From: Snowella sp.
Lineage (GTDB): Bacteria; Cyanobacteriota; Cyanobacteriia; Cyanobacteriales; Microcystaceae
Assembly: GCA_035285545.1 (NCBI GenBank)
Contig: JAYKGY010000066.1
Span: 1 to 49,182, forward strand
Direction of reading: 5' to 3'
DNA length: 49,182 nucleotides
Positions 15,001 to 27,000 of the stretch are shown here, one piece after another (positions within the stretch are counted from its first letter, which is position 1; every line of letters begins with the position of its first letter). A program made the position numbers.

Positions 15001-18000
15001 GAGGTCAGTTCCAATCGCAGAGAGGCTTGTGTTAAAGCCATCAATCAGTTTACCCAAACCCACTCTTTAACGGAGATGGTTGTCTGTAGTCGTATTGCTG
15101 ACTATGAGTTACTGGCTAATCGTTTAAAGTTGCGAGGCGCAATTTATATTCGATCCTTAACCCCTGAACAGATCGATCAATACTTAGAGAATGCTGGAGA
15201 ACCATTAGAAGGGGTTAAAACCTTACTGAGACAAGATACTGCATTACAAGAATTGGCTAAAGTTCCTCTAACTTTAAGTATTATTACCCTGGCTTATTAT
15301 GGTAAAAAAGCGCAAGAAATTCCTCAGACAGGTTCATTAGAAATTCGCCGTCAACATCTTTTCACTACTTATGTCGATCAGATGTTTCAACGTAAAAGGA
15401 TCAATCAGAAATACTCACGGGAAAAGACGGTTCAATGGTTAGCTTGGTTGGCTCAAAAAATGTCTAACCTTTCGCAGTCTATGTTTTTAATTGAGCAGAT
15501 ACAGCCAAGCTGGTTGCCCAACAAACTCGAAAATATTTTTTACCGACTGGGAATTGTTTTGGCTGGAACCTTAGTGATTGCTTTCATCTTATTCATCGGG
15601 ATGACTTTTGATTTAGGCAATATTCAGCTTAATCAATTGAATGTTATTGCTCTCAATATCTTTGCATGGGGTCTAGTTTTATTTGCCTATTTTGGCATAG
15701 GTGCAATTGAAATTAATACATTTGAATCATTGACATGGCCATGGAAGAAAAGTGGTAAAGAATTGCTAGCTGGTTTTGTAAAAGGACTCATCTGGGGTTT
15801 TGCGCTTTGTCCCTTTGCTATACTGTGGTGCGTCCGAATCTGTCGAGACGGAGCGACTCAAGAAAATATTATTGCTAGCATTATTCTCGGACTCGTTTTG
15901 GGGTTAATCATTGGCATAATTGATGCAGTAAAGGGGGCTGAAATAGAAACAAAAACTATCCCTAATCAAGGAATTAGGCAATCAGCGGTTAATGCAGGAA
16001 TCATCACGGTAATTAGTTGGATTATCTTGAGTGTCATGATTCTGAATTTTTTCCCTATGGGACTACGATCTGTCAGTTCTATAATCACTTGGGGTCTGAT
16101 TTTAGGCTTACTGTTTGGAGGCGGAATTGCAGTGATCCAGCATTACGGTCTACGATTTTTCCTTTGGATTAGAAATTATGTTCCCTTTAGTCTGGTTCAC
16201 TTACTCGACTATGCCAGTGAGCGCGTTTTTCTACGAAAAGTTGGTGGTGGTTACATTTTTATTCATCGGATGCTACTAGAATATTTTGCTAGGATGAAGT
16301 GAGTTTCCTTCGTTCATCCATTTAATACTAGGTATCAAAAAGGCATCAAAAGGAGCAAAATTTATGTATACCGTAGAAGCTTGTCAATCAATTCTAGATA
16401 CAGGTAGAAGCACGACGGAGGAAGCCTTACAGTTATTTGATTCGCTTGATCCTGTCAATGTAGAGTTTATGTTGGGTCGTTGGCGGGGTTCTGAATTAGA
16501 GACGAATCACCCCATGAATGGTTTGTTAGCGATCGCCAACTGGTATGGCAAAGAATTTATTGATCCTGAAACTGTCCACCCCTTACTCTTTTTGGACAAC
16601 AACGGAGACATCTTGAAAGTGGCTCCCAAAGCCAACTTAATGAAATGGATGTTACAGATTCCACTCCCTCGCAATACCGCATTAAAACCCGTCTTAAGCT
16701 TTATTAATACCTTTTTAAAAACCGAAAATAGCCAGGCTCGATTGCGGATGATGGAATGCCGAGGATCCGTTACCGCCACCATGATTTATGATTATTTACC
16801 CATCAATGACTCGTTTAAAAAAATTGATGACAACACCGTGTTGGGAATTATGGATTATAAAGAATTGGCTCAACCCTTCTTTTTCGTCCTCAAACGGGAA
16901 GTCTAGTGGCTAAGATCGATGACATCCCAACAACAGACACAACAGTAAAAATACACCTAATTTATAAAATTTATTTTTGTTATCCGTAAAAACTCCCAAA
17001 ATCGTAACAAGCATACCAGAAGCTTAAGCCATAGATAGATAGATTAATCGGTTAACACTAGGCCCTAATTTTTGGTTCAGGTTGAATCGCTGACTATTTT
17101 CGTCTAGTGTCGTCCTGTACTTTGACAAAATTTAGGAGTAATTAATCTGTCATGCCCTCAAAGCCATTTAATCTTTCTCGTCGTCAGATCCTGCGGGGGG
17201 TCTTGGCCTCTACTGCGTTTGGAATAACCACAAAATTAGGAACGGGCTGTACCCCTGCCAAAGAAGAATCGGCTACACCCACCGCTGCAAGTTCTCCGAG
17301 TAGCCCTGCGGAAGATATGGTTATTGGGTTTATCTACGTCGGGCCAAAAGATGATTTTGGGTATAACCAGGCCCATGCCGAAGCTGCGGCGAATTTAGCG
17401 AAACTCCCTGGTATCAAAATTGTTGAACAGGCGAGTGTTCCCGAAACCACAGAAGTTCAAGAAGCCATGCGGAGTATGATCGAGCAGGATGGGGCTAAAA
17501 TTCTCTTTCCCACCTCTTTCGGTTATTACGATCCCCATATTTTAAAAATGGCCGAAGAATTTCCCGATGTACAATTTTTCCACTGTGGCGGACTCTATAA
17601 GGAGGGGGTTCATCCCAAAAATGTAGGTAGTTACTTCGGCTATATCGATGAAGCTCAATACATTGCGGGCATTGTTGCCGGCCATACAACCAAATCCAAT
17701 AAATTAGGTTTTATTGCAGCCAAACCCATTCCCCAAGTGCTTCGTAATATTAATAGTTTTACCTTAGGGGCGAAGAGCGTTAATCCTAAAATTACGACTC
17801 AGGTAGTTTTTACAGGAGATTGGGCCGAACCCGTTAAAGAAGCTTCATCGGCGAATAGTATGGCGGATCAAGGCATTGATGTCCTAACCTGCCATGTGGA
17901 TAGTCCCAAAGTCATTATGGAAACGGCAGAAAAACGGGGTATTTACTGCTCTGGTTATCATGCCAATCAAGCTTCGTTAGCGCCCAAAGGTTACTTAACC

Positions 18001-24000: not shown

Positions 24001-27000
24001 TTGCAGGTCTTTGGTGGAGAAATTGTGGGAATTGCGGGGGTTTCAGGAAATGGTCAACGGGAATTAGTCGAAATTTTGGCAGGGCAACGGGCCACAACGG
24101 AAGGGCAAATCCGCATTAACGGTCAAGTTTATCGCTCAACTCGCCAAGAAATGTTTAACCATCAAGTTTTTATTCTGCCAGAAGAACCCCTACGGAATGC
24201 TTGTGTTCCGACGATGAGCGTGGCGGAAAATATGGCCCTCAGAACTTTTGACCGTGCCCCCCAAGCCAAGGGAGTTTGGCTAATTTTAAGCGCAATTCGG
24301 GAAATGGCAAGCGGATTAATTCACACCTTTTCCGTGAAAACTCCTTCCCCAGAAACACCGATTAGTAATCTTTCGGGTGGAAACGTGCAACGGGCTGTTC
24401 TTGCTAGGGAATTATCTTCTCCTGATATTAAAGTTTTGATTGCCGCGAATCCCTGTTTTGGTTTAGATTTTGCCGCAGTCGAATTTATTCATCAACAGAT
24501 TTTAGAAGCGAGAAACCGAGGGGTAGCCGTGTTACTGGTCAGTGAAGATTTGGATGAATTATTAAAATTGTCGGATCGCATTATGGTGATGAGTGAGGGG
24601 CGATTGGTGTACGAAAGTGAAACGGAATCAGCCGATATTACGATTATTGGTCAAAAAATGGCAGGACATTAACTATGATCACCATTAAAGCCCAACCCTA
24701 CGATTATGAAATTCCCGATCTACAAAGCCTTGCGCTGATCATTATTGATATGCAGCGAGATTTTTTAGAAGAAGGGGGATTTGGAGCCGCTTTGGGAAAT
24801 GATGTCAGCCCATTACGCGCCATTGTTCCCACTGTCAAAACCTTGTTAGAAACCTTTCGTCATCATCAATTACCGATTTTTCAAACTGTTGAAGGGCATC
24901 AACCTGATCTCTCTGACTGTCCACCGTCTAAATTAAAACGGGGTAATAGTTCTTTAAAAATTGGCGATCGCAGCACAATGGGACGAATTTTAATTTTAGG
25001 AGAAACGGGCAATCAAATTATTCCTGAATTAGAACCGCTACCCAATGAGATTATTATTTCTAAACCAGGCAAAGGGGCCTTTTATCAAACCGAATTGCAG
25101 ACTTATTTACAAGCGAAAGGGATTACTCACCTGATTTTTGCGGGTGTGACTACTGAAGTTTGCGTTCAGACGACCATGCGAGAAGCCAACGATCGCGGCT
25201 ATGAATGCTTATTAATTGAAGATGCAACCGCCAGTTATTTTCCCGAATTTAAGCAAGCAACCTTGGAAATGGTACGCGCTCAAGGCGGAATTGTCGGTTG
25301 GACGGCCTCTGCTAATAACGTGTTAGCTGCTTTAAGGTGATTTTTACAAATCTAAATTTTAGAAAAGCAAAAAAATTTAGGAATTTTCAGAGGATCAGTT
25401 TCAATCCCTCATAAGGCTTTGAATTAATTGCAATATTTAATCGAGTCTGGCGTTAGTGGTGCGGCTTTGTTTCAATCCCTCATAAGGCTTTGAATTAATT
25501 GCAATGTGTTACGCTTCCGTCTAGCCTCCGTTTTTTGTGGTTTCAATCCCTCATAAGGCTTTGAATTAATTGCAATATTAGCGTTTTTCTGGTGGTACTA
25601 AAAAAACTTTTTGTTTCAATCCCTCATAAGGCTTTGAATTAATTGCAATAACCGTTCTGGTACTGACCTGTAATGCCTTAGCTGTTTCAATCCCTCATAA
25701 GGCTTTGAATTAATTGCAATCAGTAACAGGTCTATTCGTGTAATATGGAGACTTGTTTCAATCCCTCATAAGGCTTTGAATTAATTGCAATAAGAAACCG
25801 TGATTCGGTTGCTCATTCTGGACTTTGTTTCAATCCCTCATAAGGCTTTGAATTAATTGCAATTGACCATTGGATTTCTCCTAAAAGTAGCTGCTCTGTT
25901 TCAATCCCTCATAAGGCTTTGAATTAATTGCAATGGGGGTGTGGAGCTTTGCGGTTTAAGACTTTACGTTTCAATCCCTCATAAGGCTTTGAATTAATTG
26001 CAATCTTTTGTCACCAGCCGCAAAAGCATAATATTCAATGTTTCAATCCCTCATAAGGCTTTGAATTAATTGCAATAGTTATCGTTGCCAGTAATGTCTT
26101 TCTCCATGTCAAGTTTCAATCCCTCATAAGGCTTTGAATTAATTGCAATGGTGATTGAGGCAACCGAGCCAAATACCCGTACTAGTTTCAATCCCTCATA
26201 AGGCTTTGAATTAATTGCAATACATCTCAGCTAGGGGAGGCAATTAAGACGGCTTTAGTTTCAATCCCTCATAAGGCTTTGAATTAATTGCAATGTAAAT
26301 GCTGACCATTGGTGCAAACTTTACGAATTGTTTCAATCCCTCATAAGGCTTTGAATTAATTGCAATGCTGAGCAAGCCGAACGGGAAAAAGAACGTTACA
26401 AGTTTCAATCCCTCATAAGGCTTTGAATTAATTGCAATTCGGGTTAGAGTCCAAATCAACCCCAATAGATTCGTTTCAATCCCTCATAAGGCTTTGAATT
26501 AATTGCAATCGAGGTTTATCCCACCAAAAGCCTGCTACATCTGCTGTTTCAATCCCTCATAAGGCTTTGAATTAATTGCAATCGTCAAATAGGGCTTTGT
26601 AGCAGTCGCTTTCGATGTTTCAATCCCTCATAAGGCTTTGAATTAATTGCAATTCGGGGTCGTCAACCTTTATAAAGCCAGAAACGTGTTTCAATCCCTC
26701 ATAAGGCTTTGAATTAATTGCAATCATGTTTTAAAAAATATGAAAGCTCATCTAAGCTACGTTTCAATCCCTCATAAGGCTTTGAATTAATTGCAATTTT
26801 TAGCTACTTCAGAGTCGGCAGGATATTCAGTGTTTCAATCCCTCATAAGGCTTTGAATTAATTGCAATGGCTGATGCGTTAACTTTTACGGATTAGATTA
26901 TTATGTTTCAATCCCTCATAAGGCTTTGAATTAATTGCAATACGGCCCGCCGCAAGGTCATTGTCCATGTTTAGGTAGGTTTCAATCCCTCATAAGGCTT

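Follow-up and report, generated by a model that had tools for sequence, protein, structure and literature searches.

A putative cyanobacterial version of the triuret/biuret nitrogen-scavenging cassette in Snowella sp.

A trtA-biuH cluster, with atzF and atzD as further possible members, is described for Rhizobium leguminosarum and Herbaspirillum sp. BH-1 in the available text of PMC7948467, according to which six positions separate TrtA from BiuH and the specificity residues were defined by mutagenesis. Clusters combining biuH, trtA and atzF (in some cases also trtB) with bmpA-nupABC are found in ammonia oxidisers and comammox Nitrospira (PMC12625717, mSystems 2025). The accessible portion of that paper reads them as a nitrogen supply from purine- or fertiliser-derived triuret and biuret; it labels the transporter a nucleoside transporter and leaves its cargo undiscussed. 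On the atrazine plasmid pADP-1, the atzRSTUVW genes encode a transporter whose binding protein, AtzT (6PI5), takes guanine (110 nM), adenine and 2-hydroxyatrazine as ligands; its Glu165 bonds guanine (PMC6834077). The stand-alone protein c4763 of uropathogenic E. coli (5C5Z) has been given a putative part in urea breakdown, as cited secondarily in the available text of PMC7558591.

Gene layout and distribution

The window analysed here is a stretch of 49,182 nucleotides from Snowella sp. (genome G000; other G-numbers denote other cyanobacterial genomes). Eight co-directional genes, all on the + strand, lie at 17152-25340 with intergenic gaps of 51, 36, 23, 31, 10, 71 and 2 nt in gene order. 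The initial annotation had described this region as an eight-gene operon in which transporter genes are interleaved with hydrolases, and all of its ORFs and domain calls were reproduced. The first gene (17152..18345) encodes a 397 aa binding protein (SBP) of the Bmp/PnrA family (PF02608, E 5e-45) and is followed by two ABC permease genes. The 382 aa product of the first of these (18397..19545, TTG start as listed) matches PF02653 (BPD_transp_2, E 6e-29) and resembles NF047929 at 172 bits, below the cut-off of that model; the second permease (19582..20508, 308 aa) matches PF02653 with an E-value of 1e-40. Next come genes for a stand-alone AH_C protein, the biuret hydrolase BiuH and an 8-oxoguanine-deaminase-like amidohydrolase, all discussed below, and a tandem ABC ATPase (23080..24672) with two ABC_tran domains (E 3e-47). 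Family alignments of this ATPase begin only at residue 26-31 of the listed ORF, and from the sequence ATG 23122 is a likelier start than the listed TTG 23080. The triuret hydrolase gene, trtA, closes the operon.

Upstream, sequence reading and a regex search located a near-match to the NtcA box, GTA-N7-TAC, at 17004..17016 (+ strand), 148 nt ahead of the first codon of the SBP gene and followed by a -10-like hexamer, TAGATT, at 17040-17045. Its spacing is one base below the canonical N8. As the initial annotation had said, the Snowella operon has only this near-match; the regex found no canonical GTA-N8-TAC box in the window. A near-identical box, GTAACAAGCTTAC, precedes the operon of G196, and 4 of 18 relatives have a canonical box close to where the SBP gene begins.

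We counted as carriers the genomes with a TrtA-like gene at an identity of at least 67% in a sample of 400 other Cyanobacteriota genomes. Such a gene is present in 24 of the 400 and in 17 of 155 genera, the window's own included, the same figures as counted previously. Of the 24 carriers, 17 have the core SBP-permease-permease-BiuH-ATPase-TrtA in colinear order, which bears out its conservation across cyanobacterial orders; among named loci, 40 of 80 do. The same interleaved order recurs in 27 of 40 non-cyanobacterial loci, including those of Rhizobium leguminosarum, Nitrospira and other phyla. Because of this shared order and the nitrifier clusters published in 2025, the cassette is not new; it is known from other bacteria, and the Snowella locus is a cyanobacterial version. 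Within the window's family it occurs in just 2 of 20 other genomes, and the named carriers are mostly filamentous (Microcoleus, Leptolyngbyaceae, Pseudanabaena, Stenomitos). Such cyanobacteria live mainly in sediment and soil.

Hydrolases and transporter

BiuH (20950..21636, 228 aa) scored 418.6 bits on NF050097, the NCBI biuret amidohydrolase equivalog model with a cut-off of 370, and its best structure match is Rhizobium BiuH (6AZO, E 4e-123). Alignment to 6AZO against the residues listed in the available text of PMC7948467 places the catalytic residues at D29, K135 and C168, and all six specificity positions are of the BiuH type (Y40, Y46, S140, D166, T193 and V211). The second isochorismatase-like hydrolase, TrtA (24675..25340, 221 aa), falls short of the BiuH cut-off, at 240 bits, and is best matched by Herbaspirillum TrtA (6XIX, E 1e-86). 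Aligned with 6XIX and compared with the same residue list, it has the triad D25, K130 and C163, the ligand residues E73, K133 and Q203, and all six TrtA-type specificity residues (F36, N42, A135, E161, Y188 and I206). The triad, ligand and specificity residues are invariant across 17 cyanobacterial homologs. With each paralog carrying its own specificity set, the two enzyme assignments made earlier appear sound at the sequence level.

The translated SBP begins with a twin-arginine motif (SRRQIL) and has a Cys at residue 33. Among solved structures it is closest to AtzT (6PI5, E 8e-60) and a Brucella protein (3S99, E 6e-56); these closest relatives bind guanine and adenine (PMC6834077 for AtzT). 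The ligand-site positions are Y71, S122, F123, Q169, Q195, N199, W224, H248 and D250, a signature common to the cassettes of cyanobacteria, Rhizobium and Nitrospira. The aromatic sandwich Y71/W224 is retained. The purine-contacting Glu is lost: of 65 SBPs linked to such operons, 53 have Gln where AtzT has Glu165, 12 have Pro, Thr or Ser, and none has Glu. From these sequences we infer that the cargo is triuret and/or biuret. The initial annotation had gone further in proposing the first triuret/biuret importer and a hidden pathway. An identical interleaved cassette is present in R. leguminosarum, and the closest solved relative of the SBP comes from an atrazine plasmid, on which atzT presumably adjoins genes of the cyanuric-acid, biuret and allophanate pathway. 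The collocation of biuH, trtA and bmpA-nupABC in nitrifiers is moreover reported in the available text of PMC12625717, so that neither claim of novelty is supported.

The AH_C protein and the proposed pathway

The AH_C gene (20532..20918) encodes a 128 aa homolog of the allophanate hydrolase C-terminal domain (PF21986, E 2e-39) without an amidase domain. It is of the c4763 type: its E-value is 2e-40 with 5C5Z and 3e-13 with fused allophanate hydrolases. No allophanate hydrolase (AtzF) above the cut-off, no AtzH/TrtB-like gene and no AtzD were found in G000. G000 does encode UreC, as do 25 of 25 carriers. The caveat of a missing allophanate amidase, raised previously, was correct, and this absence became the most informative feature of the operon. 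Intact c4763-type (type-1) AH_C occurs in 13 of 24 carriers versus 2 of 376 non-carriers, counts that overstate independence because the carriers are related to one another. It is absent exactly where a fused AtzF is present, as in all eight Microcoleus carriers, which have a 607-aa fused AtzF and no type-1 AH_C. Among the 15 carriers without an AtzF-type amidase (G000 counted) it is intact in 13, the exceptions being G346, with a broken AH_C and a truncated BiuH, and G272, with TrtA only. G089 has an amidase-only AtzF and yet retains an intact type-1 AH_C.

We propose that this operon is probably the form taken in cyanobacteria by the known cassette for scavenging nitrogen from triuret and biuret, ending via urea and urease. 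The Tat-exported SBP, the two permeases and the tandem ATPase would import triuret and/or biuret. TrtA, judging by the conservation of its catalytic and specificity residues, would convert triuret to carboxybiuret and one ammonia. Carboxybiuret would lose CO2 to give biuret, a step which is spontaneous in vitro (half-life ~20 min) and may be enzyme-assisted here. BiuH, scoring above the equivalog cut-off, would then yield allophanate and a further ammonia. With no allophanate hydrolase encoded, allophanate would break down to urea and CO2, and the genome's urease would free the last two nitrogens. The allophanate hydrolase C-domain decarboxylates N-carboxycarbamate, although this catalytic role is disputed by others. 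Gene co-occurrence suggests that AH_C may catalyse one or both of these decarboxylations of N-carboxy-ureides, and the stand-alone protein may replace the usual last enzyme of the cassette. In G000 and two other genomes, the deaminase-like gene would further tie the operon to oxidised-purine salvage (8-oxoguanine to urate). The enzymes and the operon conservation behind the original triuret/biuret reading are supported, the first importer and the hidden pathway are unsupported or overstated, and the bloom-forming framing (see the distribution above) and NtcA control are weakly supported.

Alternatively, the transporter could take up 8-oxoguanine, guanine, xanthine, urate or another oxidised or ordinary purine base for an operon serving mainly purine salvage, with TrtA and BiuH only clearing ureide by-products of intracellular non-enzymatic urate oxidation. 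We regard this as unlikely, although the guanine- and adenine-binding relatives of the SBP, with which it shares the stacking Tyr/Trp and Ser/Asn ligands, argue for it, and urate oxidation is named as a natural triuret source in the available text of PMC7948467. The amidohydrolase (21647..23008, 453 aa) also speaks for purines: it scored 693.5 bits on NF006055 (8-oxoguanine deaminase, cut-off 532) and matches 3HPA (E 5e-187) and the 8-oxoguanine deaminase 7WW2 (E 2e-180). Its gene recurs, inside the operon in G196 as in G000; in G290 it comes after TrtA and is accompanied by genes for a true guanine deaminase and an allantoate-amidohydrolase-like protein. The G196 operon is flanked by a GntR regulator, an allantoate-amidohydrolase-like gene and a second AH_C; in G212 the deaminase ortholog lies inside a urate-catabolism cluster. 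G000 itself encodes HIU hydrolase, OHCU decarboxylase and PuuE allantoinase, though no PF01014 uricase was found there. Against a purine-salvage unit, BiuH and TrtA are retained by 15 of the 17 cyanobacterial operons that are complete and by each of the 27 colinear loci from outside the phylum, and a deaminase ortholog (~80% identity) occurs in only two of those 17 (G196 and G290); among the named loci, four have a homolog of 41-49% identity. The purine-contacting Glu is replaced in every one of the linked SBPs, and the Rhizobium cassette, with the same site signature, has AtzD as its extra gene rather than a purine enzyme.

In a different role, AH_C could pair with an amidase encoded elsewhere and form the small subunit of a split allophanate (or carboxybiuret) hydrolase, in which case urease would have no part. 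AtzF is clearly split in G080 and G089 into an amidase-only ORF above the allophanate hydrolase cut-off and a separate AH_C ORF, and in G248 type-1 AH_C adjoins an AtzE-family amidase (744 bits), an arrangement that fits AH_C as an amidase partner and not a self-sufficient enzyme. In G290, urea carboxylase is followed directly by type-1 AH_C, a pair which would run a futile cycle if AH_C decarboxylated allophanate to urea and is sensible only if allophanate is consumed. The candidate partner in G000, its one non-GatA amidase-signature protein (an uncharacterised 467-aa amidase on contig C119), is nevertheless unlinked to the operon, scores 123-127 bits on the allophanate hydrolase model (cut-off 511) and has apparently widespread orthologs; in 12 of the 14 genomes with intact type-1 AH_C (G000 counted) no allophanate hydrolase- or AtzE-type amidase lies beside it. 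This role for AH_C seems to us rather improbable. That the hydrolases act instead on other acyl- or guanyl-ureas (formylurea, guanylurea, acetylurea) is very doubtful: formylurea is the second-best TrtA substrate, but the activity of Herbaspirillum TrtA stayed below 0.5% with every other compound tested (both from the available text of PMC7948467). A formamidase gene does lie inside the cassette of four cyanobacterial loci and of Rhizobium; against this, every mutagenesis-defined specificity residue is conserved and BiuH exceeds a curated equivalog cut-off.

Comparison with known systems

The Rhizobium leguminosarum cluster (locus L129) has the window's order of SBP, permease, permease, BiuH, ATPase and TrtA, with TrtA 63-64% and BiuH 78-79% identical and an SBP bearing the same signature, YSFQQNWHD. 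It differs by the extra formamidase before BiuH and by AtzD (cyanuric acid hydrolase) after it. Relative to the Rhizobium/Herbaspirillum cluster the window lacks AtzD, AtzF and TrtB, and has instead the c4763-type AH_C and the 8-oxoguanine-deaminase-like gene. Several other proteobacterial loci show AH_C-like matches of 33-37% identity ~2.4 kb beyond TrtA, which may belong to the C-domain of a fused AtzF. The nitrifier clusters share with the window BiuH, TrtA and the same ABC transporter type, and the Nitrospira loci L113 and L116 its gene order; the clusters have atzF, and those of ammonia-oxidising bacteria also trtB, in the available text of PMC12625717, whereas the window has neither.

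AtzT and the window SBP both carry a Tat signal and conserve the Tyr/Trp sandwich, Ser97/Phe98 and Asn169 (AtzT numbering), while AtzT Glu165, Asn218, Asn220 and Thr139 are replaced by Gln, His, Asp and Gln, respectively. The AH_C protein matches c4763 over its whole length, and both stand alone at ~130 aa. What is distinct in the Snowella operon is the absence of AtzD and AtzF, an SBP without the purine-contacting Glu of its solved relatives, and a c4763-type AH_C that tracks the system.

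Operon architecture and identity of the enzymes

Eight ORFs lie on the + strand of the window between 17152 and 25340, separated by gaps of 51, 36, 23, 31, 10, 71 and 2 nt. In order, they specify a Bmp-type substrate-binding protein (SBP), two permeases, a stand-alone C-terminal domain of allophanate hydrolase (AH_C; 20532–20918), a BiuH-like hydrolase (20950–21636), an 8-oxoguanine-deaminase-like amidohydrolase (21647–23008), an ATPase (23080–24672) and a TrtA-like hydrolase (24675–25340). The operon and its annotation were correctly described in the initial annotation, all eight ORFs being present and the profile and solved-structure matches in agreement. 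Profile searches revealed a complete Bmp/PnrA-type ABC importer, made up of the Bmp SBP, two BPD_transp_2 permeases and a tandem-domain ATPase, the parts of which are 54–94% identical in relatives. The SBP N-terminus has a twin-arginine motif (SRRQIL).

Residue positions in the two hydrolases were taken from ungapped alignments to Rhizobium BiuH (6AZO) and Herbaspirillum TrtA (6XIX), and compared with the list in PMC7948467, which names the triad residues, the ligands of the substrate and six positions that differ between the TrtA and BiuH consensus. The BiuH-like protein scores 418.6 bits on NF050097 (equivalog cut-off 370), matches 6AZO with an E-value of 4e-123, and possesses the BiuH-type residues Y40, Y46, S140, D166, T193 and V211 together with D29, K135, K138, C168 and Q208. 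The TrtA-like protein is a second isochorismatase-like hydrolase (PF00857, E 3e-43; 6XIX, E 1e-86), which reaches 240 bits on the BiuH model, under its cut-off. Its triad (D25, K130, C163) and Val-Thr cis-peptide (V158-T159) align with D24, K129, C162 and V157-T158 of 6XIX; the ligand residues E73, K133 and Q203 match E72, K132 and Q202, and the discriminating residues F36, N42, A135, E161, Y188 and I206 correspond to F35, N41, A134, E160, Y187 and I205. This set is unchanged across 17 cyanobacterial homologs. According to the same paper (PMC7948467), mutation of most of the six discriminating positions cripples TrtA. Since the specificity residues are all kept, and those of TrtA are invariant in the 17 homologs, the concern raised earlier, of a possible shift in the specificity of these paralogs, is much reduced; judged by these residues, the two proteins are predicted to be TrtA and BiuH. 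The amidohydrolase clears the equivalog cut-off for 8-oxoguanine deaminase (NF006055, 693.5 bits versus 532) and matches the solved structures 3HPA and 7WW2, the latter an 8-oxoguanine deaminase (E 2e-180). From the profile score and its similarity to a characterised enzyme, it is a predicted 8-oxoguanine deaminase.

It had also been claimed that the operon is linked to NtcA. Upstream of the SBP gene there is a near-match, GTA-N7-TAC, at 17004–17016, with TAGATT 23 nt downstream; the canonical box of NtcA-activated promoters (GTA-N8-TAC with a TAN3T -10 hexamer about 22 nt downstream) is absent from the window. Among relatives, GTA-N8-TAC occurs near the SBP start in four of 18 (background, 0.12 per kb). 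The NtcA claim was therefore overstated, and nitrogen control of the operon is plausible. The N7 spacing is found upstream of the SBP gene in seven of 19 regions, of which one genus supplies four (loci L037, L042, L043–L045 and L051 are included), and the copy in G196, another cyanobacterial genome, is almost identical to that of the window. A regulator different from NtcA may bind there. Promoter and terminator scans gave matches not above shuffle expectation (18 versus 18.5 and 10 versus 12.6, respectively). No Rfam match at gathering score was located in the window, and thus no known riboswitch leader.

Distribution among cyanobacteria and neighboring genes

We screened 400 other Cyanobacteriota genomes, counting TrtA at a minimum of 67% identity, and reproduced the earlier count of 24 carriers, representing 17 of 155 genera including that of the window. 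Eight of the 24 belong to one genus, matching named Microcoleus records. The emphasis on bloom-forming cyanobacteria was too strong, since only two of the 20 other genomes of the window's family carry TrtA. When up to 18.5 kb was fetched around each TrtA match, the core SBP-permease-permease-BiuH-ATPase-TrtA proved colinear in 17 of the 24 carriers; in the other seven it was split over contigs, rearranged or reduced.

Several further genes accompany the cassette. A gene for a ChrR-like cupin of approximately 120 aa (Cupin_7) lies between the ATPase and TrtA genes in 12 of 29 carrier stretches (e.g., L041:7022–7384), and is present in all eight Microcoleus carriers and absent from the window. 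CN_hydrolase genes of one cluster (at least 35% identity among the four) are in or beside the cassette at L046:4373–5392, L053:8905–9897, L059:8126–9163 and L062:8840–9865, being just upstream of BiuH in L046, L053 and L062. By score the L046 product is an AmiF-type formamidase (575 bits, cut-off 406), as is that of the Rhizobium leguminosarum gene in the same place (L129:5665–6681, 588 bits); the L053, L059 and L062 copies were assigned by Pfam scan. The window has no such gene. Large divergent genes adjoining the SBP gene were considered as urea carboxylases and rejected, as they specify WD40-repeat proteins and a hybrid histidine kinase.

Immediately before the operon, window positions 14365–16906 (+) encode a 645-aa NACHT/STAND NTPase, with weak matches to antiphage families, and a GXWXG/DUF4334 protein. 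A CRISPR array (approximately 25398–29050) begins 58 nt past the TrtA stop and contains about 51 copies of the 37-nt repeat GTTTCAATCCCTCATAAGGCTTTGAATTAATTGCAAT at a spacing of 70–75 nt; translation of these repeats yields recurring IAINSKPYEGLK pseudo-ORFs. Directly after it, at 29537–31009 (-), is a gene for a 490-aa TnpB/IS605 OrfB-like protein with a Cas12f1-like TNB domain. In G196 a porin gene precedes the operon, and genes for a GntR regulator and an M20 amidohydrolase follow it. Since the flanks differ between the two genomes, the cassette sits in a variable region.

The AH_C protein and the end of the pathway

The AH_C protein of the window, 128 aa in length, spans only positions 435–562 of the allophanate hydrolase model and has no fused amidase-signature domain. 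No gene in its genome (95% complete) scores above the allophanate hydrolase cut-off, the two amidase matches being GatA and a generic amidase. That genome also gave no match to the AtzH-like family of the carboxybiuret decarboxylase TrtB (PF11533; the positive control matched in Caulobacter), and none to the cyanuric acid hydrolase AtzD in a tblastn search with the Rhizobium AtzD ORF. Counting the window's genome among 25 carriers, AtzH-like genes occur in 17, beside the operon in none, and urease is present in all 25.

Stand-alone AH_C proteins were divided by score into type 1 (131–138 bits, the window copy included) and type 2 (94–116 bits). The best solved match of the window copy is c4763 of UPEC (5C5Z, E 2e-40). 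Intact type-1 AH_C was found in 13 of the 24 carriers versus two of 376 non-carriers, counts which are not independent because the carriers are kin. All eight Microcoleus carriers, and further Microcoleus genomes found in the type-1 AH_C search, possess, at a separate locus, a fused AtzF of 607 aa; in contrast, a review (PMC7281370) reports allophanate hydrolase in only three of 308 cyanobacteria. The eight of 25 carriers with fused AtzF all lack type-1 AH_C, and an intact copy is present in 13 of the 15 without an AtzF-type amidase (window's genome counted). Individual carriers add detail: in G080 AtzF is split and comes with an AH_C of its own, G089 has an amidase-only AtzF with type-1 AH_C elsewhere in the genome, G346 a broken type-1 AH_C beside a truncated BiuH, and G272 TrtA only, with type-1 AH_C absent. 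It therefore seems that the function of AH_C is required wherever BiuH occurs, and that the amidase domain is dispensable. Neither the Cupin_7 gene nor AtzH-like genes showed a distribution complementary to that of AH_C.

The simplest chemistry would be for AH_C to remove CO2 from the N-carboxy products that BiuH and TrtA release, turning allophanate into urea and carboxybiuret into biuret, and urease would then act on the urea from allophanate. Two loci count against the simplest form of this idea. In G290 (L151:1582–5735) a urea carboxylase gene (1849 bits) is directly followed by type-1 AH_C, allophanate amidase being absent from that genome. With an allophanate decarboxylase, this pairing would amount to a futile cycle. 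In G248 (L152:4965–6911) type-1 AH_C lies directly upstream of a gene for an AtzE-family amidohydrolase (744 bits, cut-off 461). That the window AH_C is itself TrtB was rejected, since TrtB groups with AtzH and HpxZ in PMC12625717 and the window protein is AH_C/GGACT-like. The rule "fused AtzF or stand-alone AH_C, never neither" offers a concrete and cheaply testable function for a family with a solved structure (5C5Z).

Transporter cargo and relation to known systems

Among solved structures, the window SBP is closest to AtzT, from the atrazine plasmid (6PI5, E 8e-60); next comes a Brucella protein whose structure contains adenine. Binding by AtzT is at 110 nM for guanine and 2.2 uM for 2-hydroxyatrazine, its ligand contacts being Tyr45, Ser97, Phe98, Glu165, Trp194, Asn218 and Asn220 (PMC6834077). 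Like AtzT, the window SBP retains the stacking pair (Y71/W224) as well as S122 and F123; unlike AtzT, it has Gln195 for Glu165, His for Asn218, Asp for Asn220 and Gln for Thr139. Judged by the purine-bonding Glu, which is replaced, it falls outside the purine-binding subgroup (AtzT, Brucella 3S99); the sandwich is kept. At the AtzT Glu165 position none of 65 cassette-linked SBPs of all phyla has Glu (Gln in 53, Pro, Thr or Ser in 12), and 36 of them have the exact signature of the window SBP, YSFQQNWHD. Because Glu is kept in none of the 65, we mark these SBPs as a distinct clade, and from the residue pattern their ligand is probably something other than a plain purine. The amide side chain of Gln195 could fit the C=O/N-H pairs of a ureide. 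The Glu-to-Gln switch would then be a sequence marker separating ureide-type from purine-type Bmp transporters.

A purine derivative as cargo stays a rival because the deaminase gene recurs, though in a minority, with the TrtA operon. It is inside the operon in the window's genome and in G196; the G290 copy stands after TrtA, alongside genes for guanine deaminase and an allantoate-amidohydrolase-like protein. Four proteobacterial loci have homologs of 41–49% identity flanking the cassette. The G212 ortholog is located between the genes for urate hydroxylase HpxO and OHCU decarboxylase, in a urate cluster that also includes HIU hydrolase, a GntR-type regulator, type-2 AH_C and PuuE. The same association fits a published origin of triuret, as urate oxidation is proposed to be its source in PMC7948467.

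The window's genome has a urate cluster of its own on contig C1 (L006:6270–10012, -), headed by a type-2 AH_C (136 aa) and continuing with PuuE allantoinase, HIU hydrolase, OHCU decarboxylase, a CcbP-like calcium-binding protein and an XdhC-like factor; PF01014 uricase was not found in this genome. In three carriers a gene for an OprB-family porin adjoins the cassette, beside the SBP gene in L037 (15032–16837) and L057 (12066–13715) and just past TrtA in L042 (2756–4783). Two of the three porins have an SLH domain, and they may admit the same cargo across the outer membrane.

Returning to the ureide as cargo, we tentatively propose, as a reading that we consider rather unlikely in its full form, that c4763-type AH_C is a new decarboxylase of allophanate and/or carboxybiuret, rerouting an AtzF-less pathway via urea and nickel urease, and is joined with a Gln-for-Glu Bmp clade specific for triuret or biuret. 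If so, about 6% of the sampled cyanobacterial genomes, including mat-forming Microcoleus, would use urea-fertiliser impurities and products of purine oxidation as nitrogen. Nitrogen is applied as fertiliser mainly in the form of urea, which is accompanied by triuret and biuret; should cyanobacteria import and mineralise these compounds, an extra organic nitrogen pool would feed their growth in fertilised catchments. A link between triuret and cyanobacteria was not found in the literature searched, the single paper that mentions both being unrelated (Robinson et al. 2018 and the thesis behind the "phytoplankton" remark of PMC7948467 lay outside the search).

A wider scan, with one genome per species, kept 80 loci of 591 relatives. 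The same interleaved order was found in 40 of these, including 27 of the 40 non-cyanobacterial loci, many of the remaining loci being cut by contig ends; it extends to R. leguminosarum, R. sophorae, Nitrospira, Verrucomicrobiales, SAR324, Planctomycetaceae, Variovorax, Hoeflea and others. In a quick tree, all 64 cyanobacterial TrtA proteins and one verrucomicrobial one form a single clade (SH-aLRT 97), which lies within a radiation made up mostly of proteobacteria. The origin of the cassette is not cyanobacterial. The verrucomicrobial member, from a Verrucomicrobiales MAG (L098), is nested in the cyanobacterial clade, which could point to a cyanobacterial donor or to a mistake in binning; its cassette has type-1 AH_C at 68% identity downstream of TrtA.

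In R. leguminosarum the cassette reads SBP, permease, permease, formamidase, BiuH, AtzD, ATPase and TrtA, and PMC12625717 (2025) places biuH, trtA, atzF and trtB with "bmpA-nupABC" in ammonia oxidisers and comammox. Accordingly, what had been presented as a hidden pathway is a known cassette in a cyanobacterial version, and the claim of a first importer went too far, given that collocation of BiuH and TrtA with the transporter is already published there. What is new and testable relative to these systems is the architecture without AtzF, the occurrence of either c4763-type AH_C or fused AtzF, and the Glu-to-Gln signature of the SBP.
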